Shown piece after piece: positions 83-39,095 of a DNA stretch of 64,000 bases; positions within the stretch are counted from its first letter, which is position 1, and each line of letters opens with the position of its first letter. The notes under the pieces were generated by a model that saw nothing but the letters and a program-made list of their open reading frames with translations, was not told the DNA's origin and ran no database searches. This DNA is from Candidatus Moranbacteria bacterium UBA2282 (GTDB lineage Bacteria; Patescibacteriota; Minisyncoccia; Moranbacterales; UBA2206). Position numbers and translations under genes: made by a program. The stretch spans positions 3,707 through 67,706 of the forward strand of contig DDWQ01000005.1 in assembly GCA_002345745.1 (NCBI GenBank), given 5' to 3'.

Positions 83-3000
83 ATGCACAAAACAATCAAA
101 AACATAGGTGTCATAATTTTCATTGCTATCTTCGCCATTAGTCCCTTGCAAATTAATTTGCAAGCTCTTTCCAAAAATGTTGTAGTGGGTGAGACTTTGC
201 AATTAGAAGAATTATATATCAGCGAAAACACAACTTGGAACAATGATACCAATCTATCAAATTATGGAAACATCTATGTTGATTGGGGTGTAACTTTGAC
301 CATTGAAAAAGGAACACAACTAGCATTTCGTCATTTGCAGATCGATGGCAGCGTTGTTGCCAAAGGTACTAAAGAAGAAAAAATAAAATTAACCGGAATT
401 CCACTAACTTTTGAAGAAGGCGGACTGTATGATCCACGTTGTTCAATGTCGCCAACAGCCACGATTGAATTTAGCGCTCCTGGGGATTATGTGGAAGATC
501 CAGAATCTATTTTTGAATTTGTAGAATTTTCCCAAATGGGTGGAGAATATTCATATGATACAGACAATTGTCCAAGTCTAGGAATGAATAACAGTATCAA
601 AGATATGTTTTTTCCAACAGTCTATGCATCTCCGGTGAATCCAGTTGCTCCAGCTATGACTTTCTATTCAGGCCGAGTGAAAATGAGCAACTGTGATTTC
701 AAAAACAATGCCTATGCGGATATAAAAGTTGAGACGGAATATGGTGAATGGAATTCACAAAGTTATCTGCATATCGAAAACTCCAACTTCCAAAACAACT
801 CTCAAGATACAGCTGTCATAGCTAAAGTTACAAAACCAGATGTATATAGCTCACTTTTTGAAAGCTGTTTCAATGAATGCAAACTCAATTACCCAGATGA
901 CTATATGATTTATGGTCCAATTTGTAATAGCTATTGCACAAATGTCGCAGGCAGTGACCCGAGTTTTCATGACAAATCCAAAGTTCTTTTGAAAAACAAT
1001 TGGTATGGCGATTCAGCTGGTCCAGAAATTGAATCTGTGCCAAATGTGGGTGGGGAAAAACTAATTGGTGACTACACTTCAGAAAGTTGGAGTGCAACAG
1101 AAATTGAAAATTCTGTAGTGCCAGTGACGACTGGTGGAGCATCCAACGTCCTTTTTTTGCCAGGATTGGAGGCGAGTCGGTTGTATAAAGATGGAATAAC
1201 TGAAAATCAACTTTGGGAACCTAATCGCAATGATGATGTGGAGAAATTATTTTTGGATGAAAATGGAAAAAGTCTAAACCAAAATGTGTATACAAAAGAT
1301 ATACTTGATGAGGTAAATGTATCACTATTAGGACAAAAAAATATATATAAATCATTTGAAGCTGATTTGAAAAAGTGGAAAAATGATGACAAAATTATCA
1401 ATGATTATTCGGCTGTGCCATATGACTGGCGATTGTCGCTGGAAGATATTTTAGAGGGAGGCACAATTTCAGATGGAGATCATATCTCATATACTGGAAA
1501 ATCAATCGCACCATATATTATTCGCGAATTAAGAAGATTGGCGAAAACTTCCAAATCTGGCAAAGTGACTATTGTGGCACATTCCAATGGTGGACTGTTG
1601 GCAAAAGCTTTGACTAATAAATTAGGAGTAGAAGCTGAAAGTCTGATTGACAAGATTGTTATGGTGGCTGTGCCACAAGTTGGAACACCGCAAGCAATTG
1701 GTGGACTTTTGCATGGCTATGACCAAGGTTTGCCTGCAGATTGGCTACCTTTGCTTCTGTCGCCTAAAACTGCTCGAACATTGGCAAATAATATGTCGAG
1801 TGCGTATAATTTGCTTCCATCCAATGCATATTTCAATGGCAATGGTAGTGAAACAAGCACACCAGTTATTTCTTTTGAAAATGGATCACTCACGCAACCA
1901 TTCATCAATAAATATGGCAATGAAATTGACACCCCAACCAAATTACATAATTTTCTCTTGGACTCGGAGGGAAAAGTTTCAGTCGATTCAGATAATGTTG
2001 TCAGTCCAAGCACAATCAATGCAAAATTATTAGGCTATGCCAAAGATGTGCATCAATTACTTGATGATAATTGGTCAGTGCCATCATCAATTTCTGTCTA
2101 TCAAATTGCTGGTTTTGGCGAAGAGACACTGGGGAAAATACGATATTGGACAGGCATAGAATGTGTGAAAACATTTCACAGTTGGTGTTTGAAATATCAG
2201 CCAAAATTACAATATTCACCCGAAGTAGTCATTGATGGTGATGGTACAGTGGTAGCACCGAGTGCTTTGGCGATGAGTGCAGATGCAGAAAATGTGAAGA
2301 GGTTTTGGGTAGATTTAAAAAAATACGACACGCTTCTTAATTGGGAAAGAGAGCATGCTGATATTCTTGAAGTTTCAGAATTAAGAAGTTTCATCAAAGA
2401 CAATATTTTAACTCGAAAAAATACGGAATTCCCGCAATTTATTTCAGACTCAATGCCATCCAATAATTCCGAAAAACGCTTACATTACATTTTGCATTCG
2501 CCATTAGCACTTTCCGCACAGGACACATCTGGCAATGAAATTAGTGCTTCAGTTTCGACGATTCCTGGGGCAACATACAGACGCTTTGGCGAAGTGCAAT
2601 TCATCTCTTTGCCAGCTTCTGTGGCACACGCAGTGATGCTCACTGGACTGGCAGAAGGCTCATTCACATTGGAAATGCAGGAAGTGGAGAACGACGCCGT
2701 GGTGGCAGAAACAACTTTTGCCGGTATTCCATCTTCAGACAAAACCAAAGTCACAATAGAGGTGACTGACGGCACAATTGAAAATGCTTCACCACTGGCT
2801 GTGGATTTTGATGGAAACGGTGTAATTGAATTTTCACTAGAACCAAAAGTTGGTGAAACAATCACGCCACTTATTTTAGATCAAACTCCGCCAGAAGCCA
2901 GAATGTTTTTTGACACTCAGACTAATTTAATAAAGGTAGAAGGAATTGATGAAAATCCAACTACAGTGACCTATGCAACATCCATGATATCCAAAAAGAA

Positions 3001-3439
3001 TCAAAATCATAATGAAAGATATGCTAGCAAGGTGACCACAGCTACAGTTGCTGATCAGGCGGGAAATGTCACAATTCTCAAATATACAGAAAAGTTTGTG
3101 AATCATAATCGCAGAGTGGCTGTTGAGCTCAATTCAATCAGCTACAATGGCGTCGTGACCAATCTTTATGATACAATAGCAAAGTACAATTGGACTCTGG
3201 GCAGAAAAGATGAGGTATATAGAATGTTTGCGACCAATTTGCACACAGCCTCTAGTACAGTCGAATCACACTATCGACCAAAACAAAATATCACGATGAT
3301 TATGACGAGACCACAAGAACTAGATGATAATCGTGATGATGACAATGATGCTGATAGGCGAGCAACCAAACAAAAATTGGCAGGTCTAGTTATCCCTGCG
3401 CTGGTGACCAAACAGGGCGTAGTTGAGATTAAGTATTAA
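83..3439 (+). CDS. Large secreted alpha/beta-hydrolase-like surface protein (paralog A); N-terminal signal peptide, AHSNGG nucleophile-elbow motif (lipase/esterase-like)
   Basis: 1118-aa ORF with hydrophobic N-terminal signal (IGVIIFIAIFAISPLQ). Internal motif VTIVAHSNGGLLAKAL fits the G/A-H-S-x-G serine hydrolase elbow. A near-identical paralog lies at 35322..38666. Confidence 0.6.
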   Translation: MHKTIKNIGVIIFIAIFAISPLQINLQALSKNVVVGETLQLEELYISENTTWNNDTNLSNYGNIYVDWGVTLTIEKGTQLAFRHLQIDGSVVAKGTKEEKIKLTGIPLTFEEGGLYDPRCSMSPTATIEFSAPGDYVEDPESIFEFVEFSQMGGEYSYDTDNCPSLGMNNSIKDMFFPTVYASPVNPVAPAMTFYSGRVKMSNCDFKNNAYADIKVETEYGEWNSQSYLHIENSNFQNNSQDTAVIAKVTKPDVYSSLFESCFNECKLNYPDDYMIYGPICNSYCTNVAGSDPSFHDKSKVLLKNNWYGDSAGPEIESVPNVGGEKLIGDYTSESWSATEIENSVVPVTTGGASNVLFLPGLEASRLYKDGITENQLWEPNRNDDVEKLFLDENGKSLNQNVYTKDILDEVNVSLLGQKNIYKSFEADLKKWKNDDKIINDYSAVPYDWRLSLEDILEGGTISDGDHISYTGKSIAPYIIRELRRLAKTSKSGKVTIVAHSNGGLLAKALTNKLGVEAESLIDKIVMVAVPQVGTPQAIGGLLHGYDQGLPADWLPLLLSPKTARTLANNMSSAYNLLPSNAYFNGNGSETSTPVISFENGSLTQPFINKYGNEIDTPTKLHNFLLDSEGKVSVDSDNVVSPSTINAKLLGYAKDVHQLLDDNWSVPSSISVYQIAGFGEETLGKIRYWTGIECVKTFHSWCLKYQPKLQYSPEVVIDGDGTVVAPSALAMSADAENVKRFWVDLKKYDTLLNWEREHADILEVSELRSFIKDNILTRKNTEFPQFISDSMPSNNSEKRLHYILHSPLALSAQDTSGNEISASVSTIPGATYRRFGEVQFISLPASVAHAVMLTGLAEGSFTLEMQEVENDAVVAETTFAGIPSSDKTKVTIEVTDGTIENASPLAVDFDGNGVIEFSLEPKVGETITPLILDQTPPEARMFFDTQTNLIKVEGIDENPTTVTYATSMISKKNQNHNERYASKVTTATVADQAGNVTILKYTEKFVNHNRRVAVELNSISYNGVVTNLYDTIAKYNWTLGRKDEVYRMFATNLHTASSTVESHYRPKQNITMIMTRPQELDDNRDDDNDADRRATKQKLAGLVIPALVTKQGVVEIKY

Positions 3440-3457
3440 TTATTTTATTAAAAAAAT

Positions 3458-3874
3458 ATGACGAAAAAAAGTGTTCTTGTAGTCAACAGCATCGCAATTA
3501 TATTGCTTTTGACATTAGCTTATACGCAAAGCGGAACTAGCTGTTACTCAACTGTTTGGTGTAATAAACTTTGGGATGCTATCAATAGAGTAGGTGAAAT
3601 GTTATTTATTTTTATTCCAGTTTTACTTTTCTCCCTCATCACCTACAAAATGCGTGACGAAGTTTTTCAGGCTTGGTGGAAATTTGCCCGCTGGTTTGTG
3701 CCGGTGATTATGCTGGTTACTCTTCTAATCAACTCTCAAAGCCGAGGTGGTGGAATGGGTATCAGTGGTGCTATATCTAGTAGTTTCAACTTATTTATAA
3801 TTGGCATTTTCTACGCAATTTTTGTCATAACCTCTTTGGTCAAAATAACGCTGGCGTATCGGCGGGTGAAATAA
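3458..3874 (+). CDS. Small polytopic membrane protein (paralog A of 38685..39095); C-terminal 80 aa identical between copies
   Basis: 138-aa ORF, 18 bp downstream of the hydrolase gene, with multiple hydrophobic segments. The 3' ~250 bp is identical to the second copy. Confidence 0.55.
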   Translation: MTKKSVLVVNSIAIILLLTLAYTQSGTSCYSTVWCNKLWDAINRVGEMLFIFIPVLLFSLITYKMRDEVFQAWWKFARWFVPVIMLVTLLINSQSRGGGMGISGAISSSFNLFIIGIFYAIFVITSLVKITLAYRRVK

Positions 3875-22534: not shown

Positions 22535-22588
22535 ACACATTTTTGAAATATGCTATAATTGAAACAGTAAAAAATTAGATTAAAATAT

Positions 22589-22942
22589 ATGGAGCAAAAA
22601 GAAATAACTATAAATGACTTGGCCGTAATGATGAAAGAGGGATTTGAAAAATCCGATAAGAGAACAGATGAAAAAATTGAAAAATTGGCAGTCATGATTA
22701 AGCATAGTTTTGATGGTGTTGATAAAAAATTCGAAGTAATGGCAGAAGAATTTTGGAGCGTGAAGAGGCGGTTGGATATGTTTGAAGGGAAGTTAGATGT
22801 AATTGAGCGAGGTCAGGAGGACATTAAGCTTCGTCAAGACAACTCGGCGTGGCGTTTTGAATTGGAAGAACAAGAAAAAACCTTGGAAAAGCATAATGCT
22901 CGAATTGGCGTGCTTGAGGAAAAAGTCCTGTTGGCAAGCTAG
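22589..22942 (+). CDS. Hypothetical coiled-coil protein
   Basis: 117 aa, charged heptad-like sequence. No motif. Confidence 0.4.
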   Translation: MEQKEITINDLAVMMKEGFEKSDKRTDEKIEKLAVMIKHSFDGVDKKFEVMAEEFWSVKRRLDMFEGKLDVIERGQEDIKLRQDNSAWRFELEEQEKTLEKHNARIGVLEEKVLLAS

Positions 22943-22962
22943 AATTTTTATTTAATGTTTTT

Positions 22963-25365
22963 GTGTGCAAAATAAAATTTATGAAAAAAATAAAAAAGAT
23001 TATTTGTTCTAAAAAAAATCTAAAACGAGATATCAGTATCATCACACTTTCTTTGTTGTTGGCGGTCTCAGTTGTCAAAGCTGGCAACTTGGATTCCATT
23101 AGCAGTCCGAGTGCTACGGGATATACCTTGACCGATATCTATCAAAGATTGACAACCAATCAAAGTGCAAATGACAGCGAACATATTTTTTCACCGTTAG
23201 CTGATCCGTCCGCTAGCTTTCATACATTAAAAGAAATTTATGAATCCATTCCAACTATTGAAGCGAGCAAAGTTAAATTAGGCACAGATTATTTGGGAAT
23301 TTCTGGAACTCTTTTACCAAGTGGAGGGACAACTGATGCTGGCAATGTGCTAAGTGGCAAAACTTTTTTTGGCAATAATCAAACTGATTGGACTTTGCAA
23401 ACTGGATCAATGCCTAACATTGGACAACAAGTTTTGACTCCTGGAATTGTCGATCAAATCATTACTCTCGGTTATCACGATGGCACTGGAAAAGTTGTCG
23501 GTGACACTGACTTAATTTCTGGCAATATCAGAAGCGGAATCAATCTTTTTGGAATAGACGGTGATTCTGACGTGGTGGACACATCATCAGGAACGGCAAT
23601 TGCTAATGAATTGGTGTCAGGAAAAAAAGCGTGGGTTGGTGGGGTTGAACTTACTGGCATGTTAGCGAATATTGGACAGCAAATTCTCACCCCTGGAATA
23701 ATAAATCAGACAATTACTTCAGGATATCATAATGGTACAGGATATGTTTTAGGTGACACTGAGTTGATTTCAACTAACATTAAAAGCGGAGTAAATATTT
23801 TCGGAGTTGCTGGTGATTCTAATGTGGTCGACACTTCTTCGGGAGATGCTGTCGCGGGAAACTTGTTGTCCGGGAAAAAAGCTTGGGTGGACGGTGCAGA
23901 AGTCACGGGAAATTTTGCTTCGCAAGAAAAAACCGCAACCACTGAAGGCGAGCAAATAACGCCAGACTCTGGTAATTGGCTGTCCAAAGTTACAATAGCA
24001 ATAACAAATTTAATTACGGGAAATATTAAAAAATCAGTCACGGTTGGTGGTGTGGCAGGAACTTATTCAGGTTTTCCGGGAACTGGTTGGACACCTAATG
24101 GGTCTGGCGATGGTTCAACTGCACTCACTCAAACTATTTGTGAAGCGCAGGGTGCCAATTGGAAATGGTTTGAAGATGCCAACGGAGATGGCGATACAAT
24201 TGATCCAGAAGATGGAATTTGCATTAAGACTGCAACTATCACATCAGATTCTTGGAATGGTGCGGAACAAATGAATGGCTATGTTTTGGCTGACACAACT
24301 ATGGCCTCTGGAACTTCAAATTCCGTGACAGTTGCTGGCACACCATGGGTAGCAGATCGCTATAAAAATGAAATTGTGAAAATCATCTCCGGAACAGCTT
24401 CGCCTTGTTGGGGAATTGTGAAAACCAACACCACAAACACCATCACAGTTTTTGGCTCTTGGTTGCAATCAACCTATGCGGCTTGTGCGACAACTCCAGA
24501 TGCCACTTCACACATTCAAGTTTTTGATGATAATAAATTCGACAATTCTTTTATTGGAGATTATTCTTGTGCTGGAAATTTTCCAAGCGGAACAGTGACA
24601 CTTGGATCGTATCCCACAAGCGGCACAATTGCTTTGGCAGTAACGGATTGCTATGACGGCAAAAGGGATTTATTACCTAATGAAACTGATCGAGCGGTGC
24701 TCTCTGGCACAGTAACGACGACCGATGCCACTTCAGTGACTGATTCTGATCAAGCAATGTCAGTTAACGTCTGGATAGGACAAAAAGTTTTGATTACAGG
24801 CGGAACAGGCAGTGGTTCATATGGAGTTGTGGAAAGCAACACTGGAACAAAATTGACGGTCGCTAGTTGGAGCGGAACAGCACCTGATGTTGCATCAACT
24901 TTCAAAATTATTTATATTTTGCCTCGGTCAGCTTATGTTGGTACGGCAGGAATGTCACAAATTATTGGTGGCACAAGTGATGATGTCAAAGCTGGTCAAG
25001 GACCACTTGCGGAGAAACAACTAAAAGAATGGGTCGGCACAAAACTTCCAACCTCGCAAGATTTTTTCGGTTTTTGTGGTGCCACTTCTGGTGATGCTGA
25101 TGGAACTGCTGGTGGCAGCACATATAGTTCCTCTGGTGCTTCGACTAATAGCACAATTGGAAATTATGGATCTAATGTTGGTAGAGGAAAAAACGCTGCG
25201 CCGAATGATGAATATATGGATCTTTCTAATAGCGGTTCTTGGGAGTGGCTTTCAGAGCAGCACAGTGGCAGTGGTGCTCGGGTTGCCGGCAATAGCGCTT
25301 GCTCGTACTTCGGTAGTTCTAATGTCAACAGTGGCTATCGGTTCAGAGCGGTGTTTCGCCCCTAA
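22963..25365 (+). CDS. DGR target protein: secreted/anchored protein with three tandem ~80-aa repeats and a C-terminal C-type-lectin-like variable region
   Basis: N-terminal signal/anchor. Repeated blocks NIGQQ(V/I)LTPGI...GD(S/T)(D/N)VVDTSSG...SGKKAWV. C-terminus ...NSACSYFGSSNVNSGYRFRAVFRP contains the VR that matches the TR downstream. Confidence 0.85.
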   Translation: MCKIKFMKKIKKIICSKKNLKRDISIITLSLLLAVSVVKAGNLDSISSPSATGYTLTDIYQRLTTNQSANDSEHIFSPLADPSASFHTLKEIYESIPTIEASKVKLGTDYLGISGTLLPSGGTTDAGNVLSGKTFFGNNQTDWTLQTGSMPNIGQQVLTPGIVDQIITLGYHDGTGKVVGDTDLISGNIRSGINLFGIDGDSDVVDTSSGTAIANELVSGKKAWVGGVELTGMLANIGQQILTPGIINQTITSGYHNGTGYVLGDTELISTNIKSGVNIFGVAGDSNVVDTSSGDAVAGNLLSGKKAWVDGAEVTGNFASQEKTATTEGEQITPDSGNWLSKVTIAITNLITGNIKKSVTVGGVAGTYSGFPGTGWTPNGSGDGSTALTQTICEAQGANWKWFEDANGDGDTIDPEDGICIKTATITSDSWNGAEQMNGYVLADTTMASGTSNSVTVAGTPWVADRYKNEIVKIISGTASPCWGIVKTNTTNTITVFGSWLQSTYAACATTPDATSHIQVFDDNKFDNSFIGDYSCAGNFPSGTVTLGSYPTSGTIALAVTDCYDGKRDLLPNETDRAVLSGTVTTTDATSVTDSDQAMSVNVWIGQKVLITGGTGSGSYGVVESNTGTKLTVASWSGTAPDVASTFKIIYILPRSAYVGTAGMSQIIGGTSDDVKAGQGPLAEKQLKEWVGTKLPTSQDFFGFCGATSGDADGTAGGSTYSSSGASTNSTIGNYGSNVGRGKNAAPNDEYMDLSNSGSWEWLSEQHSGSGARVAGNSACSYFGSSNVNSGYRFRAVFRP

Positions 25366-25366
25366 G
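25247..25366 (+). repeat. DGR variable repeat (VR), last 39 codons plus stop of the target gene
   Basis: 120-bp match to 26470-26589 with 17 mismatches, every one at a TR adenine (TR AAT/AAC codons versus VR AGT/GGC/GGT/TTC etc.). Confidence 0.9.
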
Positions 25367-25415
25367 TTTTTTCCCGTCAAAATATTTGATGATTTGGTGA
25401 TTTGGATAATTTGAG

Positions 25416-25540
25416 TACCGCGAATTACGCAGATTTAAACTAATTCCGCTAATTTAAATACCGCGAATTACGCAGATTTAAACTAATCCCGCTAATTTAA
25501 ATACCGCGAATTACGCAGATTTAAACTAATTCCGCTAATT
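25416..25540 (+). repeat. Tandem direct repeat, 43-bp unit x ~3 (TACCGCGAATTACGCAGATTTAAACTAATTCCGCTAATTTAAA)
   Basis: Copies start at 25416, 25459 and 25502. One C/T difference between copies. The third copy is truncated at the GxxExxY start codon. Confidence 0.9.
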
Positions 25541-25924
25541 ATGACAGAAAAATTACTGCACAAAGAACTTTTGTATAGGTTGGTAGGCGCCGCGATGGAT
25601 GTACATAAAATTTTAGGACCTGGATTTCTTGAAGGAACTTATCAAAAAGCTTATGAAAAGGAACTAGGGATCCAGAAAATTACTTTTATCTCCCAGAAGA
25701 GAATTAAAATATTCTATAAAGGTATTGATTTGGGATTCCAGGTGCTAGATTTGATTGTGGATAATAAGATAATTATAGAAATAAAAGCTGTTTCCGAAAT
25801 TTTACCAATTCATCAAGCTCAGCTAATATCTTATTTGAAAGCGACCGAGTATGAACTTGGAATTTTGATAAACTTTGGTGCTAAAAGTTTACAGTATAAA
25901 AGATTGGTATTTACAAAAAATTAG
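25541..25924 (+). CDS. GxxExxY-family protein (PD-(D/E)XK-like; family often found in 23S rRNA intervening sequences)
   Basis: 127 aa with a GFLEGTY motif near the N-terminus and size typical of the family. Flanked upstream by 43-bp repeats and downstream by an inverted copy of the GCGAATTACGC core (GCGTAATTCGC at 25924-25934). Confidence 0.65.
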   Translation: MTEKLLHKELLYRLVGAAMDVHKILGPGFLEGTYQKAYEKELGIQKITFISQKRIKIFYKGIDLGFQVLDLIVDNKIIIEIKAVSEILPIHQAQLISYLKATEYELGILINFGAKSLQYKRLVFTKN

Positions 25925-25958
25925 CGTAATTCGCTTAAATTAGAATAATTCGCGTTAT

Positions 25959-26342
25959 ATGGCACGATACGAACATATCAAAATTTTCCAAGTAGCCTAT
26001 ATTTTGACAGTGGAGATTCATAAAGTTGCATCCAAATTCGGCAAAAAACACCGATATACTTTGGGTGAGAAAATAAAAAATCTTTGCAGTGATATGTTGG
26101 ATATGATCGTGGTGGCAAATGCAGCGACGGAAAAACAAGAATCTTTGAAAATGATTGACGCGCAACTGGAAAAAATCAGAATTCAATTGCGCATCGTGTA
26201 TGATCTGCGAATAATCAGTGCCGGACTGCTAGGCATTCTCAACAAACGCATTGAGGAAGTTGGTCGGCAACTTGGTGGGTGGCAGAAGTGGGCGGAAGAG
26301 GAAGCTTGTCCGTCCGCTCCTGCCAGAGTCTCTGTGGACTAA
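25959..26342 (+). CDS. avd: DGR accessory variability determinant (Avd)-like four-helix-bundle protein
   Basis: 127-aa basic helical protein. IFQVAYILTVEIHKVASKFGKKHRYTLGEKIKNLCSDMLDMIVVANAA resembles the PF05635/Avd family. Lies between VR and TR. Confidence 0.75.
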   Translation: MARYEHIKIFQVAYILTVEIHKVASKFGKKHRYTLGEKIKNLCSDMLDMIVVANAATEKQESLKMIDAQLEKIRIQLRIVYDLRIISAGLLGILNKRIEEVGRQLGGWQKWAEEEACPSAPARVSVD

Positions 26343-26469
26343 GGTCTCAGAGAGAGCGCAGAAGACGGGAATTACAGTCCGACTCACTGTTTTTGTAAAA
26401 CAGTATATTCGACAAAAGGCTTACACATTTTTTGTGATAGCTTCCGAATTTTGAAAGTAGACGGACAAT

Positions 26470-26589
26470 GGCTTTCAGAGCAGCACAATAACAATAATGC
26501 TCGGATAGCCGGCAATAACGCTTGCTCGAACTTCAATAATAATAATGTCAACAATGGCAATCGGTTCAGAGCGGTGTTTCGCCCCTAAG
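26470..26589 (+). repeat. DGR template repeat (TR), non-coding, rich in AAT/AAC
   Basis: Direct repeat of the VR. Contains adenines at all 17 variable positions. Ends 14 bp from the RT stop codon. Confidence 0.9.
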
Positions 26590-26603
26590 CAATTCCTGAA
26601 AAA

Positions 26604-27833
26604 TTAATTCTCATCCCACATAAAGTAGGCGTAGTTTTTGTCAGCCGGACGAAGATAGATTTTGAGAATGCCAAAATGTTTTTCATAGAGAGTTTTTCGG
26701 AGGCCAAAGCAATTGGCGTGCTTGAAAAATCCATAGGTGGAATTTAGGGAGGAAAAAATATGTTGAAAATCTTCCAAAAATTCCGGAAAAACTGAAAAGC
26801 GGTCATAAAAAATTTTGTCGCAGGCGCAAAGATGGTCATTTGGATCGAGCGAATTTAAAATTTTTTGGTTAAACTGCCAGAGAGTATTCTTTAGCTTTTT
26901 GACTGTTCCTCGGCGGATAAGTATGTGATCCGGTTTGGTGATATATCCGCAGAAATTGATGCCTTTGTCACATTGTTGCAAAACTTGTTTTTTTGGATGA
27001 AGTTTGAGTAGTAATTTTTTTTCAACAAACTGAGAAATTTCATCTCGCCAAAAAAGCAATTGTGTCTTGGAAGGATGAAGAAGCAGAAGATCGTCCATAT
27101 AGCGAAAGCTATGGGGGCATTTCAAAGTATGTTTGACAAACTGGTCTAGTTCATTGAGATACACATTAGCGAAGAATTGACTGGTCAGGTTGCCAATCGG
27201 CAATCCTTGGTGGCTGGGATTTCCAAAGAGCGATTTGTGCCTTGGAATTGAGCGTAATAATTTGATGTCGCCTTTAACACAATAGTTCAAAGTCGGATTT
27301 TGAAAAACAATTTTTTCCGTTAGCCACAAAATGTCCGGATTTCTGAGATGTTTTTGGATAATTGCAAATAGAATGCGCTTATCGATGCTCACAAAAAAAC
27401 TGCGAATGTCAACTTGCAGGTAGAATAATTTTGGGTCAATCGATTTTTTCAGATAGGCGATGGCTTTGTGTGCACCTTTTTCTTTTCGACAGGCATAGGA
27501 ATGAAAAACGAATTTTTTCTCCCAAATCGGTTCCAGATAGCTCACCAAAAGATGATGCACGATGCGGTCGCGAAAATCAGCCGCCCAGACTTCGCGTAGC
27601 TTTGGGTCAATAATAGCAAAACAGGTGTGTTTCCCAGGCTCATATGATTTATTTTTTAACTCGCGTTCTAATCGCAGCAGTTCCACTTCAAAATTCAATT
27701 CGAATTTAGCGGCATTGGTGGTGTGGCGTTTGGATTTCCGGCATTGATAATATGCTCGTAGAAGATTTTTAAAAGAGAAAATATCTCTCTCAGGCTGTGT
27801 CAATTTTTGTGCTTGAAAAAGTTTTTGTTTCAT
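26604..27833 (-). CDS. DGR reverse transcriptase
   Basis: 409 aa with FHSYACRKEKGAHKAI (DGR RT motif 2), QGLPIGNLTSQFFANVYL (IGxxxSQ motif 4) and YMDDLLLL (YxDD catalytic motif). Confidence 0.9.
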   Translation of the reverse strand: MKQKLFQAQKLTQPERDIFSFKNLLRAYYQCRKSKRHTTNAAKFELNFEVELLRLERELKNKSYEPGKHTCFAIIDPKLREVWAADFRDRIVHHLLVSYLEPIWEKKFVFHSYACRKEKGAHKAIAYLKKSIDPKLFYLQVDIRSFFVSIDKRILFAIIQKHLRNPDILWLTEKIVFQNPTLNYCVKGDIKLLRSIPRHKSLFGNPSHQGLPIGNLTSQFFANVYLNELDQFVKHTLKCPHSFRYMDDLLLLHPSKTQLLFWRDEISQFVEKKLLLKLHPKKQVLQQCDKGINFCGYITKPDHILIRRGTVKKLKNTLWQFNQKILNSLDPNDHLCACDKIFYDRFSVFPEFLEDFQHIFSSLNSTYGFFKHANCFGLRKTLYEKHFGILKIYLRPADKNYAYFMWDEN

Positions 27834-27897
27834 GGTATTATTTTAGCATGGATATCTTGCAGGTACTTTACTTTTAAATAAATAAATTTATAAAATT

Positions 27898-28299
27898 ATG
27901 ATTAGTGACGCTCGTTGGCGTGAGCGATTTGGAGATTATAAAAAAGCAGTCAGGCGTATGCAGGACGCTCTGAAAAAAGAATCATTTAGCGAGCTGGAGA
28001 AAGACGGTGTAATTCAAAGGTTTGAATTTACTTTTGAACTTGCGTGGAAAACATTAAAAGATTATTTGGAGGATCAAAGTTTCATCGATATTTCCAGTCC
28101 GAAAAAGGCCATCCGTAAAGCGTTCGAAAGTGGAACAATTGCAGATGGCAATATTTGGATTGAAATGCAAGAGGACAGAAATAGAATGTCGCATATATAT
28201 AATCAAAGCGAAAGTGAAAAGATATTTAAAAATATTAAAGATAAATATATGAAAGCTCTAAATGACTTAGTCATTGCGCTGGAAAAAGAACTCCAATGA
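27898..28299 (+). CDS. HEPN-domain protein of the nucleotidyltransferase-substrate-binding (HI0074-like) family; toxin-like
   Basis: 133 aa with the conserved R-x4-H motif (RNRMSHIY) near the C-terminus. 4-bp overlap with the downstream MNT gene. Confidence 0.7.
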   Translation: MISDARWRERFGDYKKAVRRMQDALKKESFSELEKDGVIQRFEFTFELAWKTLKDYLEDQSFIDISSPKKAIRKAFESGTIADGNIWIEMQEDRNRMSHIYNQSESEKIFKNIKDKYMKALNDLVIALEKELQ

Positions 28300-28598
28300 A
28301 ATTCGGACTGACTGAAAAAGAAATAATGCTGTTAGTAGGCGTGTTTGAAAAAACTCGCAATATAGAGAAAGTTTTTATTTATGGTTCACGCGTCAAAGGT
28401 AATTACAAAAAAACCTCCGATATTGATTTGGTAGTTTGTTTTGCTTATAATGTCAAAAAAAGCGTTGCTATGCTAAAATCAGAATTGGAAGATTTACCCA
28501 TAATTTATAGTATTGATATAATTGATGAAGAAGAAATTGAAGTTGGAAAATTCAAAAATGAATATGCTAGAACAAGGCAGGTTTTTTATATGAAGTAG
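28296..28598 (+). CDS. Minimal nucleotidyltransferase (MNT); antitoxin-like partner
   Basis: GSRVKGNYKKTSDIDLVV matches the GSx9-13Dx(D/E) polymerase-beta-type NTase motif. Confidence 0.75.
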   Translation: MKFGLTEKEIMLLVGVFEKTRNIEKVFIYGSRVKGNYKKTSDIDLVVCFAYNVKKSVAMLKSELEDLPIIYSIDIIDEEEIEVGKFKNEYARTRQVFYMK

Positions 28599-28612
28599 TG
28601 TCTTAAAATAAA

Positions 28613-30319
28613 ATGGAAATTTTTAAAAAATATAAAGAAATAATTTTTCAGCAGATGAAATTTATTTTTATGAAAAACGGACGGGCGATTGTTTCGGCTA
28701 TTTTTGTTTTACTGATTGTTTCAAGCGTGACTATTTGGCACGCCTTAGCAACAGAAGCCACTAATATCAATTCTGAATCAAAATTTGCTTGGAGTGAAAA
28801 CACTGGCTGGTTGAATTTTGCATCAAGTAATGGTGGTGTGATGGTGACCGATACAAATATCTCCGGCTACATTTGGAGCGAGAATCTTGGTTGGATTTCA
28901 CTTAATTGTTCTAATAGCAACTCTTGTGCCGTTTCCAATTACGAGGTGGCTAATGATGGAGAGGGAAATTTGTCCGGCTTTGCTTGGAGTGACACTGTCG
29001 GCTGGATAAATTTTTCTCCAACAAACGGCGGAGTGAAAATAGATTCGGGAGGAATTTTTTCTGGTTATGCTTGGGGTGAAAATTTCGGTTGGATTGTTTT
29101 CAATTGTCAAGACTTGGATGTTTGCACAACTTCAGATTTCAAGGTCAAGACAACCTGGCTGCCCATAAGCGTGAGAAATCAAAATTCCGATGAAGAGCAA
29201 GATGGAGTGGAAGTCTTTGATGTTAATTTTTCCGCTACTGATGCAATGATAGTTATTAATTGGGACACTAATCATAATGCAGACAGTCATATTAGCTGGG
29301 GAACGGACAAAAATCTGGAAAAAGAAAAAAACAATAATAATAAAGAAGAGAAGCATCGAATTGTACTTCGGGACTTGGAATCAAATACAAAATATTATTT
29401 TCGCGTAAAATCAACAGATGGGAATGATAAATCCGATTCTTCAAGGATTTATTCCGTTTTGACTAAATCGCCATCCGCTATTTTTGCTAAACGCTCATAT
29501 CAAAATTTAGAACAGGAGAACTATGAGACGGTGGATATTCAAGTCTCTGATAGGAGCAAAAATGAGGAAAAGCTGGAAAGCTTAGTAGACACTTTAGTAA
29601 CTGTTCCGGAAAAAGTTGCGGAAAATATAGAACCAAGCCAAAAAAACAATTGGCTTTTTAGTAGCTTTTCTTTTATTAGCGAAAAAAGTAAGAATATCGC
29701 TTTCATTACTTGGAATGGAATAGCGTTTGTCTATAATGAGATTTATGTGGCTGTCATTGACGGGCAAAGGCAAATTGCTGGATTTATAATGGCAATAAAT
29801 GATCAGCTCGCCAGCGTCTATGAGTCGGCTATTTCCAAATTTAATAAAGAAAAAGCGACAGAAATCGCTAGACTAAAACAATCTAAATTTTTTACCACGC
29901 AGGTCTTTAGTCGAAATGAGAAGAAATTGCTAGCTGAAGTACGCTTCCAAATTTTGGATAAATCCGACAATCCTGTAGTTAATTTGGAAGCCACATTATT
30001 TTCTGATCCGCAAACAGCCGTCACTGATGATAATGGAGTAGCTTCTTTTAAGGATGTCCTTATTGGCTCACACACATTGGCTTTTGATTATCAGGGCGAA
30101 AATTTTGAGAAAAAAGTGTCTATTGCAGACACTGTGACTGATGAAGGAAAGGTGCGGGCAGAAGTGGTGGAGGTCAAGGCAGAAAAAGAAAAATTGGCTT
30201 GGTGGATGTGGACGGTAATGATTCTTCTGATTGTGACAGCATCTTTAGCAATATACTTTGCCAGAAAATATTATTTGCTAAAAATCGCAAAGGATGATAA
30301 ATTAGTTAGTAGTAAATAA
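28613..30319 (+). CDS. Membrane-anchored surface repeat protein (WSENxGWINF-type ~28-aa repeats, FN3-like domain, C-terminal TM anchor)
   Basis: N-terminal signal/anchor. Four repeats (WSENTGWLNFAS, WSENLGWISLNC, WSDTVGWINFSP, WGENFGWIVFNC). Segment ISWGTDKN...YYFRVKSTDGND. C-terminal hydrophobic helix followed by ARKYY. Confidence 0.55.
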   Translation: MEIFKKYKEIIFQQMKFIFMKNGRAIVSAIFVLLIVSSVTIWHALATEATNINSESKFAWSENTGWLNFASSNGGVMVTDTNISGYIWSENLGWISLNCSNSNSCAVSNYEVANDGEGNLSGFAWSDTVGWINFSPTNGGVKIDSGGIFSGYAWGENFGWIVFNCQDLDVCTTSDFKVKTTWLPISVRNQNSDEEQDGVEVFDVNFSATDAMIVINWDTNHNADSHISWGTDKNLEKEKNNNNKEEKHRIVLRDLESNTKYYFRVKSTDGNDKSDSSRIYSVLTKSPSAIFAKRSYQNLEQENYETVDIQVSDRSKNEEKLESLVDTLVTVPEKVAENIEPSQKNNWLFSSFSFISEKSKNIAFITWNGIAFVYNEIYVAVIDGQRQIAGFIMAINDQLASVYESAISKFNKEKATEIARLKQSKFFTTQVFSRNEKKLLAEVRFQILDKSDNPVVNLEATLFSDPQTAVTDDNGVASFKDVLIGSHTLAFDYQGENFEKKVSIADTVTDEGKVRAEVVEVKAEKEKLAWWMWTVMILLIVTASLAIYFARKYYLLKIAKDDKLVSSK

Positions 30320-30452
30320 AAGCTTAATCAAAATATACAGATTTGTTAACAAATAATCTTTTCGCTAAAAACTCCCAAATTTTGGCTATGACTGGTTAAA
30401 AATTGAGAAGTTTCGCTTGAAAAATTATTTATTAACAAACCTGAAAAAATTT

Positions 30453-30662
30453 ATGTCAACACAGAAACAAAGACACACTAAAGGACGACGAGATCGCGCT
30501 AGAGCTGAATTGAAAATGACTTCAACAACGCTAGTTACTTGCACAAAATGCGGAGCGAAAATTAAAGCACATATTGCTTGTTCAAAATGCGGATTCTACA
30601 AAGGGAAGGAAGTTGTAGACACAATGAAAAAGATCACTAAAAAAGCAACAGCCAAGAAATAG
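30453..30662 (+). CDS. rpmF: 50S ribosomal protein L32 (zinc-ribbon type)
   Basis: MSTQKQRHTKGRRDRARA start and CTKC...CSKCGFYKG zinc ribbon. The ORF-track start at 30417 is probably too early. Confidence 0.75.
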   Translation: MSTQKQRHTKGRRDRARAELKMTSTTLVTCTKCGAKIKAHIACSKCGFYKGKEVVDTMKKITKKATAKK

Positions 30663-35321: not shown

Positions 35322-38300
35322 ATGCACAAAACAATCAAAAACATAGGTGTCATAATTTTCATTGCTATCTTCGCCATTAGTCCCTTGCAAATTAATTTGC
35401 AAGCTCTTTCCAAAAATGTTGTAGTGGGTGAGACTTTGCAATTAGAAGAATTATATATCAGCGAAAACACAACTTGGAACAATGATACTAATCTATCAAA
35501 TTATGGAAACATCTATGTAGATTGGGGTGTGACTTTGACCATTGAAAAAGGAACGCAATTAGCATTTCGTCATTTGCAGATCGATGGCAACGTTGTTGCC
35601 AAAGGCACTAAAGAAGAAAAAATAAAATTAACCGGAATTCCACTAACTTTTGAAGATGATGGATCATATGACCCGCGTTGTTTTATGTCGCCAACGGCTA
35701 CGATTGAATTTAGCGCTCCTGGGGATTATATTGAAGATCCAGAATCTATTTTTGAATTTGTAGAATTTTCCCAAATGGGTGGAGAATATTCATATGATAC
35801 AGACGATTGTCCAAGTCTAGGAATGAATAACAGCATCAAAGATATGTTTTTTCCAACAGCCTATGCATCTCCTGTGAATCCAGTTGCTCCAGCTATGACC
35901 ATCTATTCAGGCCGAGTGAAAATGAGCAACTGTGATTTCAAAAACAATGCCTATGCGGATATAAAAGTTGAGATGGAATATGGTGAATGGAATTCACAAA
36001 GTTATCTGCATATCGAAAACTCCAACTTCCAAAACAACTCTCAAGATACAGCTGTCATAGCTAAAGTTACAAAACCAGATGTATATAGCTCACTTTTTGA
36101 AAACTGTTTTAATGAATGCAAACTCAATTATCCAGATGACTATATGATTTATGGTCCGATTTGTAATAACTATTGCACAAATGTCGCAGGCAGTGACCCG
36201 AGTTTTCATGACAAATCCAAAGTTCTTTTGAAAAACAATTGGTATGGCGATCCAGCTGGTCCAGAAATTGAATCCGCGCCAAATGTGGGTGGAGAAAAAC
36301 TAATTGGTGACTATACTTCAGAAAGTTGGAGCGCCACAGAAATTGAAAATTCTGTAGTGCCGGTGACGACTGGTGGAGCATCTAATGTTCTTTTCTTGCC
36401 AGGGTTGGAGGCGAGTCGGTTGTATAAGGATGGAATAACTGAAAATCAACTTTGGGAACCTAATCGCAATGATGATGTAGAAAAATTATTTTTGGATGCC
36501 AATGGGAAAAGTCTAAATCAAAATGTGTATACAAAGGATGTTCTTGATGAGGTAAATGTATCGCTATTAGGACAAAAAAATATCTATAAATCATTTGAAG
36601 CTGATTTGAAAAAGTGGAAAAATGATGACAAAATTATTAACGATTATTCAGCTATTCCGTATGATTGGCGATTGTCCCTAGAAGATATTCTAGAGGGAGG
36701 CACAATTTCAGATGGAGATCATATCTCATATACTGGAAAATCAATCGCGCCATATATTATTCGCGAGTTAAGAAGATTGGCGGAAACTTCCAAATCTGGC
36801 AAAGTGACTATTGTGGCACATTCCAATGGTGGGTTAGTGGCAAAAGCTTTGACTAACAAATTGGGAGCAGAGGCTGAAAGTCTGATTGACAAGATTGTTA
36901 TGGTGGCCGTGCCACAAGTTGGAACACCGCAAGCAATCGGTGGACTTTTACATGGCTATGACCAAGGCTTGCCAGCAGATTGGCTACCTTTGCTTTTGTC
37001 TCCTAAAACTGCTCGAACATTGGCAAATAATATGCCGAGTGCGTATAATCTGCTCCCATCAAATGCATATTTCAATGGCAATGGCAGTGAAACAAGCACA
37101 CCAGTTATTTCTTTTGAAAATGGAACACTCACACAGTCATTCATCAATAAATATGGCAATGAAATTAACACCCCAACCAAATTACATAATTTTCTCTTGG
37201 ACTCGGAGGGAAAAGTTTCAGTCGATTCAGATAATGTTGTCAGTCCAAGCACAATTAATGCAAAATTGTTAGGCTATGCCAAAGATGTGCATCAATTACT
37301 TGATGACAATTGGTCAGTGCCATCATCAATTTCTGTCTATCAAATTGCTGGCTTTGGGGAGGAGACACTGGGAAAAATACGATATTGGACAGGCATAGAA
37401 TGTGTGAAAACATTTCACAGTTGGTGTTTGGAGTATCAGCCAAAATTACAATATTCACCCGAAGTAGTCATTGATGGTGATGGCACTGTGGTGGCACCGA
37501 GTGCGTTGGCGATGAGCACAGATGCAGAAAATGTGAAGAGGTATTGGGTGGATTTGGATGATTACAACGATGTCTTTACAATGAAAAGAGAACACGCAGA
37601 TATTTTAGAAGTTCCATGGTTGCGAAATTTTATTAAGGATAACATCTTAACTCAGTCATCAACATCTTTTCCTCAATTTATTTCCGATTCAAAACCATCT
37701 AATAAATCCGAAAAACGTTTGCATTACATTTTGCATTCGCCATTAGCACTTTCCGCGCAGGACACATCTGGCAATGAAATTAGTGCTTCAGTTTCGACGA
37801 TTCCTGGAGCGAATTACAAACGCTTTGGCGAAGTGCAATTCATCTCTTTGCCAGCTTCTGTGACACACACAGTGATGCTCACTGGACTGGCAGAAGGCTC
37901 ATTCACATTGGAAATGCAGGAAGTGGAGAATGACGCCGTGGTGGCAGAAACAACATTTGCCGGTATTCCATCTTCAGACAAAACCAAAGTCACAATGGAG
38001 GTGACTGATGGCACAATTGAGAATGCTTTGCCACTAGCTGTGGATTATGATGGAAACGGTGTAATTGAATTTTCACTAGAACCAAAAGTTGGTGAAACAA
38101 TCACACCACCCGCTTTGGATCAAACTCCGCCAGAAGCCAGAATGTTTTTTGACACCAAAACAAATTTAATAGTAGTGGAAGGCGTGGATGAAAATCCAAC
38201 GACAGTGGTATATTCCACAGCACCAAAATTTAAAAAGAATCAGAAGCAAAAAGACAAAATAACCACAGCCACAATCACTGACCAAGTAGGAAATGTCACT

Positions 38301-38666
38301 GTGCTAACATATATCGAAAAAGCTCCAAATTATGAACGAAGAATTGCCGTTGAAGTGAAGTCTGTGAGTTACAATGGCGTTGTGACCAATCTTTATGATA
38401 CAATAGCAAAGTACAATTGGACTCTGGGCAGAAAAGATGAGATATACAGAATGTTTGCGACTCATCTTCGCACATCTTCTAGCACGATTGAATCACATTA
38501 TCGACCAAAACAAAATATCACGATGATTATGACGAGACTGCAAGAGCTAGATGACAATCGTGATGATGACAATGATGCTGATAGGCGAGCAATCAAGCAA
38601 AAATTAGCAGGTTTAGTTATTCCTGCACTGGTAACTAAACAAGGTGTGGTTGAGATTAAATATTAA
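35322..38666 (+). CDS. Large secreted alpha/beta-hydrolase-like surface protein (paralog B)
   Basis: 1114-aa ORF, about nine in ten residues identical to 83..3439 by eye. Same AHSNGG motif. Divergence is concentrated near the C-terminal third. Confidence 0.6.
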   Translation: MHKTIKNIGVIIFIAIFAISPLQINLQALSKNVVVGETLQLEELYISENTTWNNDTNLSNYGNIYVDWGVTLTIEKGTQLAFRHLQIDGNVVAKGTKEEKIKLTGIPLTFEDDGSYDPRCFMSPTATIEFSAPGDYIEDPESIFEFVEFSQMGGEYSYDTDDCPSLGMNNSIKDMFFPTAYASPVNPVAPAMTIYSGRVKMSNCDFKNNAYADIKVEMEYGEWNSQSYLHIENSNFQNNSQDTAVIAKVTKPDVYSSLFENCFNECKLNYPDDYMIYGPICNNYCTNVAGSDPSFHDKSKVLLKNNWYGDPAGPEIESAPNVGGEKLIGDYTSESWSATEIENSVVPVTTGGASNVLFLPGLEASRLYKDGITENQLWEPNRNDDVEKLFLDANGKSLNQNVYTKDVLDEVNVSLLGQKNIYKSFEADLKKWKNDDKIINDYSAIPYDWRLSLEDILEGGTISDGDHISYTGKSIAPYIIRELRRLAETSKSGKVTIVAHSNGGLVAKALTNKLGAEAESLIDKIVMVAVPQVGTPQAIGGLLHGYDQGLPADWLPLLLSPKTARTLANNMPSAYNLLPSNAYFNGNGSETSTPVISFENGTLTQSFINKYGNEINTPTKLHNFLLDSEGKVSVDSDNVVSPSTINAKLLGYAKDVHQLLDDNWSVPSSISVYQIAGFGEETLGKIRYWTGIECVKTFHSWCLEYQPKLQYSPEVVIDGDGTVVAPSALAMSTDAENVKRYWVDLDDYNDVFTMKREHADILEVPWLRNFIKDNILTQSSTSFPQFISDSKPSNKSEKRLHYILHSPLALSAQDTSGNEISASVSTIPGANYKRFGEVQFISLPASVTHTVMLTGLAEGSFTLEMQEVENDAVVAETTFAGIPSSDKTKVTMEVTDGTIENALPLAVDYDGNGVIEFSLEPKVGETITPPALDQTPPEARMFFDTKTNLIVVEGVDENPTTVVYSTAPKFKKNQKQKDKITTATITDQVGNVTVLTYIEKAPNYERRIAVEVKSVSYNGVVTNLYDTIAKYNWTLGRKDEIYRMFATHLRTSSSTIESHYRPKQNITMIMTRLQELDDNRDDDNDADRRAIKQKLAGLVIPALVTKQGVVEIKY

Positions 38667-38684
38667 TTATTTTTTATTAAAAAT

Positions 38685-39095
38685 ATGAGCAAAAAAAGTA
38701 TCTTAGTCGTTTCATCTGTGTACGTTGTTTGTTTCGTTGCGGGTTTCTTAGCTAGTTTATTGTGCGAATCTAGTAAATGCAGAATATATGATGATAGTGT
38801 TTTAGGTTGGATATTACTTAATTTTATTTTTCTTATTCCAGTTTTCCTTTTCTCCCTCATCACCTACAAAATGCGTGACGAAGTTTTTCAGGCTTGGTGG
38901 AAATTTGCCCGCTGGTTTGTGCCGGTGATTATGCTGGTTACTCTTCTAATCAACTCTCAAAGCCGAGGTGGTGGAATGGGTATCAGTGGTGCTATATCTA
39001 GTAGTTTCAACTTATTTATAATTGGCATTTTCTACGCAATTTTTGTCATAACCTCTTTGGTCAAAATAACGCTGGCGTATCGGCGGGTGAAATAA
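38685..39095 (+). CDS. Small polytopic membrane protein (paralog B)
   Basis: 136 aa. N-terminal half diverged from 3458..3874; C-terminal 80 aa identical. Confidence 0.55.
   Translation: MSKKSILVVSSVYVVCFVAGFLASLLCESSKCRIYDDSVLGWILLNFIFLIPVFLFSLITYKMRDEVFQAWWKFARWFVPVIMLVTLLINSQSRGGGMGISGAISSSFNLFIIGIFYAIFVITSLVKITLAYRRVK

Follow-up and report, generated by a model that had tools for sequence, protein, structure and literature searches.

A predicted nuclease gene framed by inverted iteron arrays, nested in a diversity-generating retroelement, as a candidate mobile cassette

Introduction

What is a small nuclease-like gene doing between the target gene and avd of a diversity-generating retroelement (DGR)? 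This question is raised by a stretch of 64,000 nucleotides from Candidatus Moranbacteria bacterium UBA2282 (assembly GCA_002345745.1, contig DDWQ01000005.1, positions 3,707 to 67,706 of the forward strand), which we refer to as the window and number from its first letter. Here, a 127-aa open reading frame (ORF) of the GxxExxY family lies between avd and a target gene whose 3' end carries the variable region (VR), with repeats on both of its sides. A preliminary description of this locus proposed either a small inserted cassette or an operator array controlling expression of avd and the template region (TR), and it likened the GxxExxY and Avd-like proteins to a pair from 23S rRNA intervening sequences (IVSs). 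Our analysis favors a selfish nuclease cassette that is probably mobile, would have protein-binding ends, and would ride on the target–avd transcript, a reading to which we assign a probability of roughly 0.6. A full-text search found no published description of inverted-array ends on GxxExxY genes or of a link between these genes and DGRs, although one may exist elsewhere.

Results

The cassette occupies positions 25414–25958 (~545 bp), is organized as array, ORF, array, and is nested between the DGR target gene and avd, as the preliminary description had placed it. Its left end consists of 3.1 tandem copies of a 43-bp block (25407–25540, plus strand; Tandem Repeats Finder, period 43, 95% matches) that reach the cassette ATG. 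The three copies described previously are thus real, and the 43-bp unit is matched three times with 2, 1, and 0 mismatches, where 0 matches are expected in shuffled sequence. Each block contains four iterons (CGCGAATT, CGCAGATT, ACTAATT, and CGCTAATT) at spacings of 9, 10, and 9 nt, and the triple repeat is most readily read as the whole left end, with its four iterons, triplicated. The left end is present as a single copy in other close relatives (consensus TAGTAACGCGAATTACGCAAATTTAAACTAATTACGCTAATT), apart from one locus (L015) with two copies of a ~52-bp version.

The nuclease gene itself (25541–25924, plus strand) starts flush with the last repeat. Its stop codon is overlapped by the right end of the cassette (25918–25958, plus strand), an inverted iteron block that ends at the avd ATG. 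The inverted motif noted earlier at this position proved to be larger than described, as the whole of 25918–25957/8 is 78–80% complementary to every 43-bp unit over 40–41 nt. The 11-mer GCGAATTACGC occurs in three plus-strand copies inside the units and in one minus-strand copy at 25924–25934. It is found nowhere else in the 64 kb, where 0.69 copies are expected, and 0 of 100 shuffles reached four copies. A looser iteron pattern is clustered only at this site within the window. At least three other assemblies yielded this contig with its repeats unchanged, which excludes an artefact of assembly as the source of the repeat. No promoter-like site was found in the left array, and a promoter or terminator role for the arrays was rejected, the only structures being weak 5-bp hairpins on the minus strand.

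The interval originally assigned to the gene and its repeats (25366–25958) requires one correction, at its left edge. The first ~47 nt (25367–25413, plus strand) are VR-proximal DGR spacer, a homologue of which is present in a related DGR with an empty site (L092) and in further DGRs with and without the cassette; the remainder is cassette. This spacer, external to the cassette and a marker of its left insertion junction, carries short ATTTGG/ATTTGA repeats, and Tandem Repeats Finder reports an 8-bp repeat at 25384–25405. By eye, such repeats (e.g. TTGATGATTTGGTGATTTGGATAATTTGA) can be seen 3' of the VR gene in the window and in L092, L097, L103, L012, L014, L006, L096, and L040. They may represent a DGR signal or a preferred site for cassette insertion.

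Comparison with sister DGRs indicates that the cassette is an insertion. In L092, whose reverse transcriptase (RT) and Avd are 57% and 55% identical to those of the window, 56 nt separate the target stop codon from the avd ATG and include the TTGATGATTTG..AATTTG spacer that it shares with the window. The window matches these flanks on both sides and has ~545 bp of arrays and ORF between them. A second pair, L006 and the empty L103 (RT 78%, Avd 81% identical), shows the same arrangement; both pairs were read base by base. In a third, L097 lacks the gene present in L015 (RT 68%, Avd 74% identical) and has a longer spacer. We claim no footprint of a lost cassette in L097, as its similarity to the left end of L015 is weak (z = 2.3; 15 of 300 shuffles scored equally well). 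Four DGRs that carry a cassette have as their nearest relative in the RT tree a DGR without one (the window with L093/L092, L012 with L094, L015 with L097, and L006 with L103). The homologous empty DGRs run from the VR-proximal spacer directly into avd or TR, with no gene and no repeats.

Similar boundaries are seen outside DGRs. Cassettes that are 70–82% identical in DNA sit in dissimilar flanks, and their homology stops at the outer array edges. The shared unit measures ~440–470 bp (436–466) in L061/L077 (82%), L017/L018, and L066/L070, and L061/L077 present the same cassette type in unrelated flanks within one metagenome. The earlier suggestion of a small, repeat-bounded inserted cassette is therefore borne out, with L092 compared to the window and L103 compared to L006. 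The proposed association between repeats and gene held as well: the 43-bp unit is not ubiquitous in the window, and homologous DGRs carry either gene and repeats together or neither.

We gathered 80 metagenome loci encoding relatives of the cassette protein (35–80% identity), 69 of them non-redundant, and matched the 150 nt preceding each gene against the 100 nt following it. Inverted-complementary flanks were significant (z ≥ 5, many > 10) in 40 of the 69 non-redundant loci, most of which have no RT or Avd nearby. The arms go beyond a plain inverted repeat, as each consists of two to four tandem units of 9–10 nt, such as three copies of ACGCGGATGA, three of CACGAATTA, or two of ACACGGATTA, with a common skeleton of roughly C-R-C-N-N-A-T. 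The 119 core spacings are mostly 9 and 10 nt, with minor peaks at about twice these values. The top pentamer was polar (forward upstream and reverse-complemented downstream, at least four copies) in 46 of 69 loci compared to 5.8% of shuffles, and at least one spacing of 9–11 nt was found in 50 of 69 loci compared to 7.4% of shuffles. The arrangement extends to isolates: in Bacteroides finegoldii, the radA stop codon is followed by three CACAGAGGA-type units, the ORF, three copies of TCCTCTGTG, and the next gene, and Treponema saccharophilum has a single inverted unit on each side. Dozens of GxxExxY genes with no avd, TR, or RT at their locus are framed by such arrays as well; the arrays are therefore a property of the cassette and not of DGR regulation.

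Array columns are 63–71% identical and their core positions invariant despite saturated synonymous sites; at the right end, the mean column identity among the cassettes of clade A (see below) is 71%. The array sequence is therefore under selection, and purifying selection acts on nuclease and arrays alike. This conservation favors recognition of the arrays by a protein, which most economically would be the cassette's own nuclease. The genes surrounding the cassettes are co-oriented with them in 49 of 54 loci upstream and 38 of 49 downstream, at a median gap of about 60 nt that is essentially filled by the arrays. Co-orientation, tight packing, and the lack of a promoter-like site fit a promoter-less unit that relies on host transcription.

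Two further observations concern these loci. Pairs of inverted iteron arrays without an ORF, resembling hairpins or miniature inverted-repeat transposable elements (MITEs), occur beside or near cassettes in L006 (6440–6520), in the flanks of L074/L075, and upstream in L026. At the Treponema saccharophilum locus (L179, pTS1), the GxxExxY cassette has a Fic gene on its downstream side and, ~1.2 kb upstream, a SUMF1/EgtB/PvdO-family gene (1–288), an annotation often given to DGR variable proteins.

Profile searches assigned the window ORF to the GxxExxY family, as expected from the preliminary description (PF13366, E = 4.6e-37, 127.4 bits, cut-off 22; TIGR04256, E = 1.4e-38, 131.9 bits, cut-off 35). 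In an alignment of 57 homologues, Glu31, Asp70, Glu80, Lys82, Gln94, and Tyr98 are invariant and correspond to the RecB/Cas4-type motifs E, D, ExK, and QxxxY. The GxxExxY motif itself (Gly28, Glu31, Tyr34) is invariant or nearly so. No solved structure matching by sequence was found. The AlphaFold2 model (predicted local distance difference test score 94) has as its top PDB fold match in Foldseek the Cas4 protein SSO0001 (4ic1; template modeling score 0.60, E = 7e-4, 23% identity), followed by Argonaute-associated Cas4-family proteins, the nuclease domains of AdnAB/AddAB, and MGME1. More distant matches include the restriction-like endonuclease of the R2 retrotransposon and the homing enzyme I-Bth0305I. 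Given its motifs and modeled fold, the ORF product is predicted to be a conserved Cas4/RecB-like PD-(D/E)XK nuclease. The protein is basic (isoelectric point 9.3) and, having no cysteine in its 127 residues, lacks an Fe-S cluster.

Within the clade, nonsynonymous divergence (pN) is about 0.10–0.13 and synonymous divergence (pS) 0.57–0.80 (saturated), giving dN/dS values of 0.04–0.11. Such low ratios indicate an expressed and selected protein. The GxxExxY family is large, with 16,779 clusters at 50% identity and E ≤ 1e-3. Many of its representatives (P0121–P0134 and others) are ~260–295 aa long and contain two tandem GxxExxY domains, and these fused relatives suggest that the single-domain protein works as a dimer. 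Two other assignments were tried and rejected. A role in a defense system would rest on Cas4 hidden Markov model (HMM) matches in PADLOC that are marginal (E about 0.004), and no CRISPR repeat or cas gene was found near the cassette. As for a viral origin, the patterns used retrieved no relatives from IMG/VR, and a PHROG match was only marginal.

We next consider where cassettes of this kind occur. Every relative that is at least 64% identical and has context available lies in a DGR. The DGR-linked relatives are L005; L006–L011 with L016; L012/L013; L014; L015; L172–L174; L175–L177; and L178. In a tree of 71 cassette proteins, two monophyletic groups are composed exclusively of DGR-linked loci: clade A, with nine distinct loci, and clade B, with four (L035/L036, L044, L096, and L040). 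They are far apart in the tree, with many non-DGR cassettes between them. The DGR cassettes nearly always lie directly 3' of the VR-bearing gene, within ~50–130 nt of its 3' end, and are followed by avd, by TR and then avd, or by the RT gene. One exception is L178, in which the cassette lies between an LptF/G gene and avd and not beside the VR gene. L014 has a cassette whose protein matches that of L005 at 97% identity, then a truncated avd remnant (1326–1420), and no RT; this locus appears to be a decayed DGR that retains an intact cassette.

Among 80 related DGR loci from species-representative genomes, an adjacent cassette is found in one (L096), and another (L121) has a GxxExxY gene ~3 kb away on the other strand. 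We estimate that ~1–2% of related DGRs carry a cassette. Most sampled family members are not beside any RT or Avd. The cassette and RT trees are incongruent: the L096 cassette belongs to clade B, yet the RT of its DGR falls among those of clade-A hosts, and L178 holds a clade-A cassette in a B-type DGR. Cassette proteins are 76–81% identical across DGRs whose RTs are 45–63% and whose Avds are 30–59% identical. Because the two trees disagree, we conclude that cassettes moved between DGRs. The simplest account of these patterns would be two cassette lineages specialized for a site in this DGR type and exchanged among DGRs, and repeated precise loss is possible for individual pairs. A DGR accessory gene would be expected to be consistently present and to co-diverge with the RT; here, sister DGRs are empty and the trees incongruent.

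Discussion

How might a selfish nuclease cassette with protein-binding ends work? The iterons would be binding sites for the cassette's own basic nuclease, probably as a dimer, and the arrays would act as element ends in the manner of multi-site transposon ends. The cassette would spread or persist through nuclease-driven homing or recombination into a preferred site, which for this lineage would be the spacer immediately downstream of the VR-bearing gene or upstream of avd. Expression would be provided by read-through from the target gene, and the triplicated 43-bp left end would add binding sites without constituting a separate device.

Several points weigh against this proposal. The connection between iterons and nuclease is inferred, as are the reason for the preference for DGRs and the mode of movement of the cassette. 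The cassette contains no recognized transposase or integrase. Direct repeats outside the arms, as a target-site duplication would leave, were no commoner than in shuffles across 29 loci. The 64-kb window contains only one GxxExxY gene and one array. Clade A diverged long ago, as its saturated dS shows, so that it offers no example of recent transposition, and each filled/empty pair could formally reflect precise loss instead of gain. Finally, the inverted arms would also pair in RNA, and an additional role at the RNA level is possible.

This last point can be developed into a reading of its own, in which the cassette is an IVS-like RNA element. The arrays would pair into a stem enclosing the ORF in the target–cassette–avd transcript, and RNase III would cut this stem and split the cassette mRNA from the host cistrons, which is compatible with mobility at the DNA level. 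The IVS of Coxiella provides a parallel, at 428–444 nt with one small ORF, terminal inverted repeats, and a 28-bp stem cut by RNase III (PMC4990558). Moreover, the arrays are paired in the minimum-free-energy fold of 25366–25965, cassettes are, judging by orientation, almost always co-transcribed with their neighbors, and an RNase III gene is present in the window. However, that fold is no more stable than shuffles (z = −1.3), and the 162 arm mismatches are not biased toward G-U pairs (41 sense-compatible, 31 antisense-compatible, and 90 transversions). A stem would also leave unexplained the phased 9–10-nt tandem units with their strict polarity in each arm, and no Rfam family matched the arrays in either gathering or permissive scans. 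Ribosomal RNA is absent from the window and from 17 other cassette loci, and 23S motifs occur in no locus. Overall, we consider an IVS-like element unlikely. The same evidence bears on the supposed protein pair from 23S IVSs, of which one half stands: S23p/Avd-like ORFs in these IVSs are documented (PMC4990558), but the full-text search turned up no paper that locates GxxExxY in them. All cassette loci examined lie outside rRNA. Non-DGR cassettes have no Avd-like ORF nearby, according to an HMM derived from 73 Avd sequences, and we therefore reject the idea that cassettes generally come with an Avd/S23p partner. L103 has a second Avd-like gene, which carries no arrays.

The remaining readings give the cassette a function within the DGR. 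It could encode a co-opted accessory nuclease, positioned by the iterons beside the VR, that nicks or processes ends for cDNA priming or integration during mutagenic retrohoming. The confinement of two independent clades to DGR loci, nearly always at the same short distance from the VR gene, is consistent with such a role, as are the strong purifying selection on the gene and a fold related to Cas4 and, more distantly, to the R2 retrotransposon's own endonuclease domain. DGR RTs have no nuclease domain, according to a large DGR survey (PMC5758913). Arguing against this role are the rarity of an adjacent cassette among related DGRs, the intact appearance of sister DGRs that lack it, the many family members beside no RT or Avd, and the placement of the L178 cassette away from the VR gene; GxxExxY is also missing from the accessory genes listed in that survey. 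Because most related DGRs have no cassette, a role in retrohoming is possible but quite unlikely. A more specific version, in which a nuclease tethered by iterons ~50 nt from the VR makes or processes the break for priming or integration of DGR cDNA, or in which, conversely, the cassette homes via DGR-induced lesions, strikes us as very unlikely. Least plausible, to the point that we give it little credence, is the operator array of the preliminary description, through which GxxExxY or Avd would control avd/TR transcription. The right array does overlap the avd translation start, the left array precedes the cassette ORF, and the iterons recur at about one helical turn, a spacing typical of cooperative DNA binding. 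Nevertheless, the same arrays flank GxxExxY genes where avd and TR are absent, they are gained and lost together with the ORF, and they contain no promoter-like site. Autoregulation of the cassette's own gene is possible, but this would not be DGR regulation.

Comparison with known systems helps to place the favored mobile cassette. ORF-bearing 23S rRNA IVSs are ~430–750 nt long, have one small ORF and terminal inverted repeats, occur sporadically, and are suspected to be degenerate mobile elements (PMC4990558). Like the IVSs of Coxiella and Leptospira with their S23p ORFs, the cassette has terminal inverted repeats (40-nt arms, 80% complementary) around a single small ORF. The IVS ORF family S23p is the Avd family, represented here by the gene next to the cassette. 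In contrast, the cassette lies outside rRNA, its ORF is predicted to encode a PD-(D/E)XK nuclease instead of a four-helix bundle, its arms are arrays of 9–10-bp iterons, and nothing in its mismatches or fold points to RNase III processing or to RNA-level selection on pairing. Free-standing homing endonuclease genes, including that of the PD-(D/E)XK enzyme I-Bth0305I, resemble the cassette in several ways: a small nuclease gene lies between conserved co-oriented genes, is present or absent at one and the same site in related loci, prefers a site that depends on its lineage, and has a phylogeny that conflicts with that of the host locus. To our knowledge, these genes do not bear inverted iteron arrays at their borders. 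Relative to Cas4 (SSO0001), its best fold match, with which it shares the RecB-type motifs and to which it has weak HMM matches, the cassette nuclease is about half the size and has neither the Fe-S cluster cysteines nor a CRISPR-Cas context.

The ends of Tn7 and Mu and the REP/RAYT (repetitive extragenic palindrome and associated transposase) systems have several reiterated short protein-binding motifs, in inverted orientation, that flank the gene of the binder. The cassette resembles these systems in its inverted multi-motif ends around the gene of a presumed binder and in the existence of ORF-less arm pairs; it differs in that its enzyme is neither a DDE nor an HUH transposase. Terminal inverted repeats also recall insertion sequences and MITE-like transposable elements, but no target-site duplication accompanies those of the cassette. 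Finally, DGR accessory genes (avd, HRDC, MSL, CH1) are likewise small genes between target and core that recur in several DGRs. The cassette, unlike these, is off the published list (PMC5758913), is found in few related DGRs, and has its own repeat-defined borders.

These results turn a local repeat into a general rule: the GxxExxY/PF13366 genes sampled sit within operons as units of ~450 bp that end in inverted iteron arrays. If the nuclease binds these ends, such units would, as far as is known, rank with the smallest self-contained mobile elements on record for bacteria, and they would offer a concrete model for what ORF-bearing IVSs are. For DGR biology, they point to a nuclease cassette lineage that specifically colonizes the VR–avd spacer and moves between DGRs. 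The natural filled/empty pairs are suited to asking whether a VR-proximal nuclease affects retrohoming; should the accessory or lesion-based reading be true, they would provide the first case of a target-site nuclease dedicated to a DGR, and a retrohoming step for which the DGR RT lacks a nuclease domain would become accessible to direct tests. For annotation, the gene between target and avd in the window is best treated as a nested element and not as a core DGR component.

The host DGR and its surroundings

The window locus is a complete DGR, with an RT, an adenine-specific TR/VR pair, and Avd. The target gene (22963–25365, plus strand) encodes 800 aa, and its last 121 nt form the VR. No Pfam match to this target was found; Lcl_C-type targets occupy the target position in homologous loci. 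The VR (25246–25366) and the TR (26469–26589), both on the plus strand, are 121-nt direct repeats with 86% identity, and all 17 of their differences fall at TR adenines. The avd gene (25959–26342, plus strand) encodes the accessory four-helix-bundle protein (PF22296, 3.8e-19; NF033474, 82.2 bits, cut-off 80). The convergent RT gene (26604–27833, minus strand; PF00078, 1.1e-14) encodes 409 aa, and its product is 45–57% identical to other Patescibacteria DGR RTs. Ongoing diversification of the VR was considered and rejected, as the VR is identical across the four assemblies that carry this contig. A weak match to the Rfam RT-7 RNA at 26322–26376, between the end of avd and the TR, scores 24 bits against a gathering threshold of 117 (E = 0.003) and may be due to chance.

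The DGR and its cassette are part of ~8 kb (about 22540–30500) between rnhB and rpmF that also contain a 117-aa ORF, a HepT/MNT pair, and a gene for a 568-aa protein. By its RNase HII, whose relatives are mostly from Candidatus Moranbacteria/Parcubacteria, the organism falls within the Patescibacteria. In relatives L181–L183, whose RNase HII is 78–80% identical, rpmF, nusB, and rnc come immediately after rnhB. Given this direct adjacency of rnhB and rpmF, the DGR lies on an acquired island, in which the cassette is nested. The HepT-like/nucleotidyltransferase (MNT) pair (27898–28598), of toxin-antitoxin type, adjoins the RT gene (PF08780, 6e-41; PF18765, 2.2e-14). Elsewhere in the window, a gene pair encoding proteins of ~1115 and ~137 aa is present in two copies 35 kb apart (83–3874 and 35322–39095), the proteins being 92% and 73% identical, respectively.

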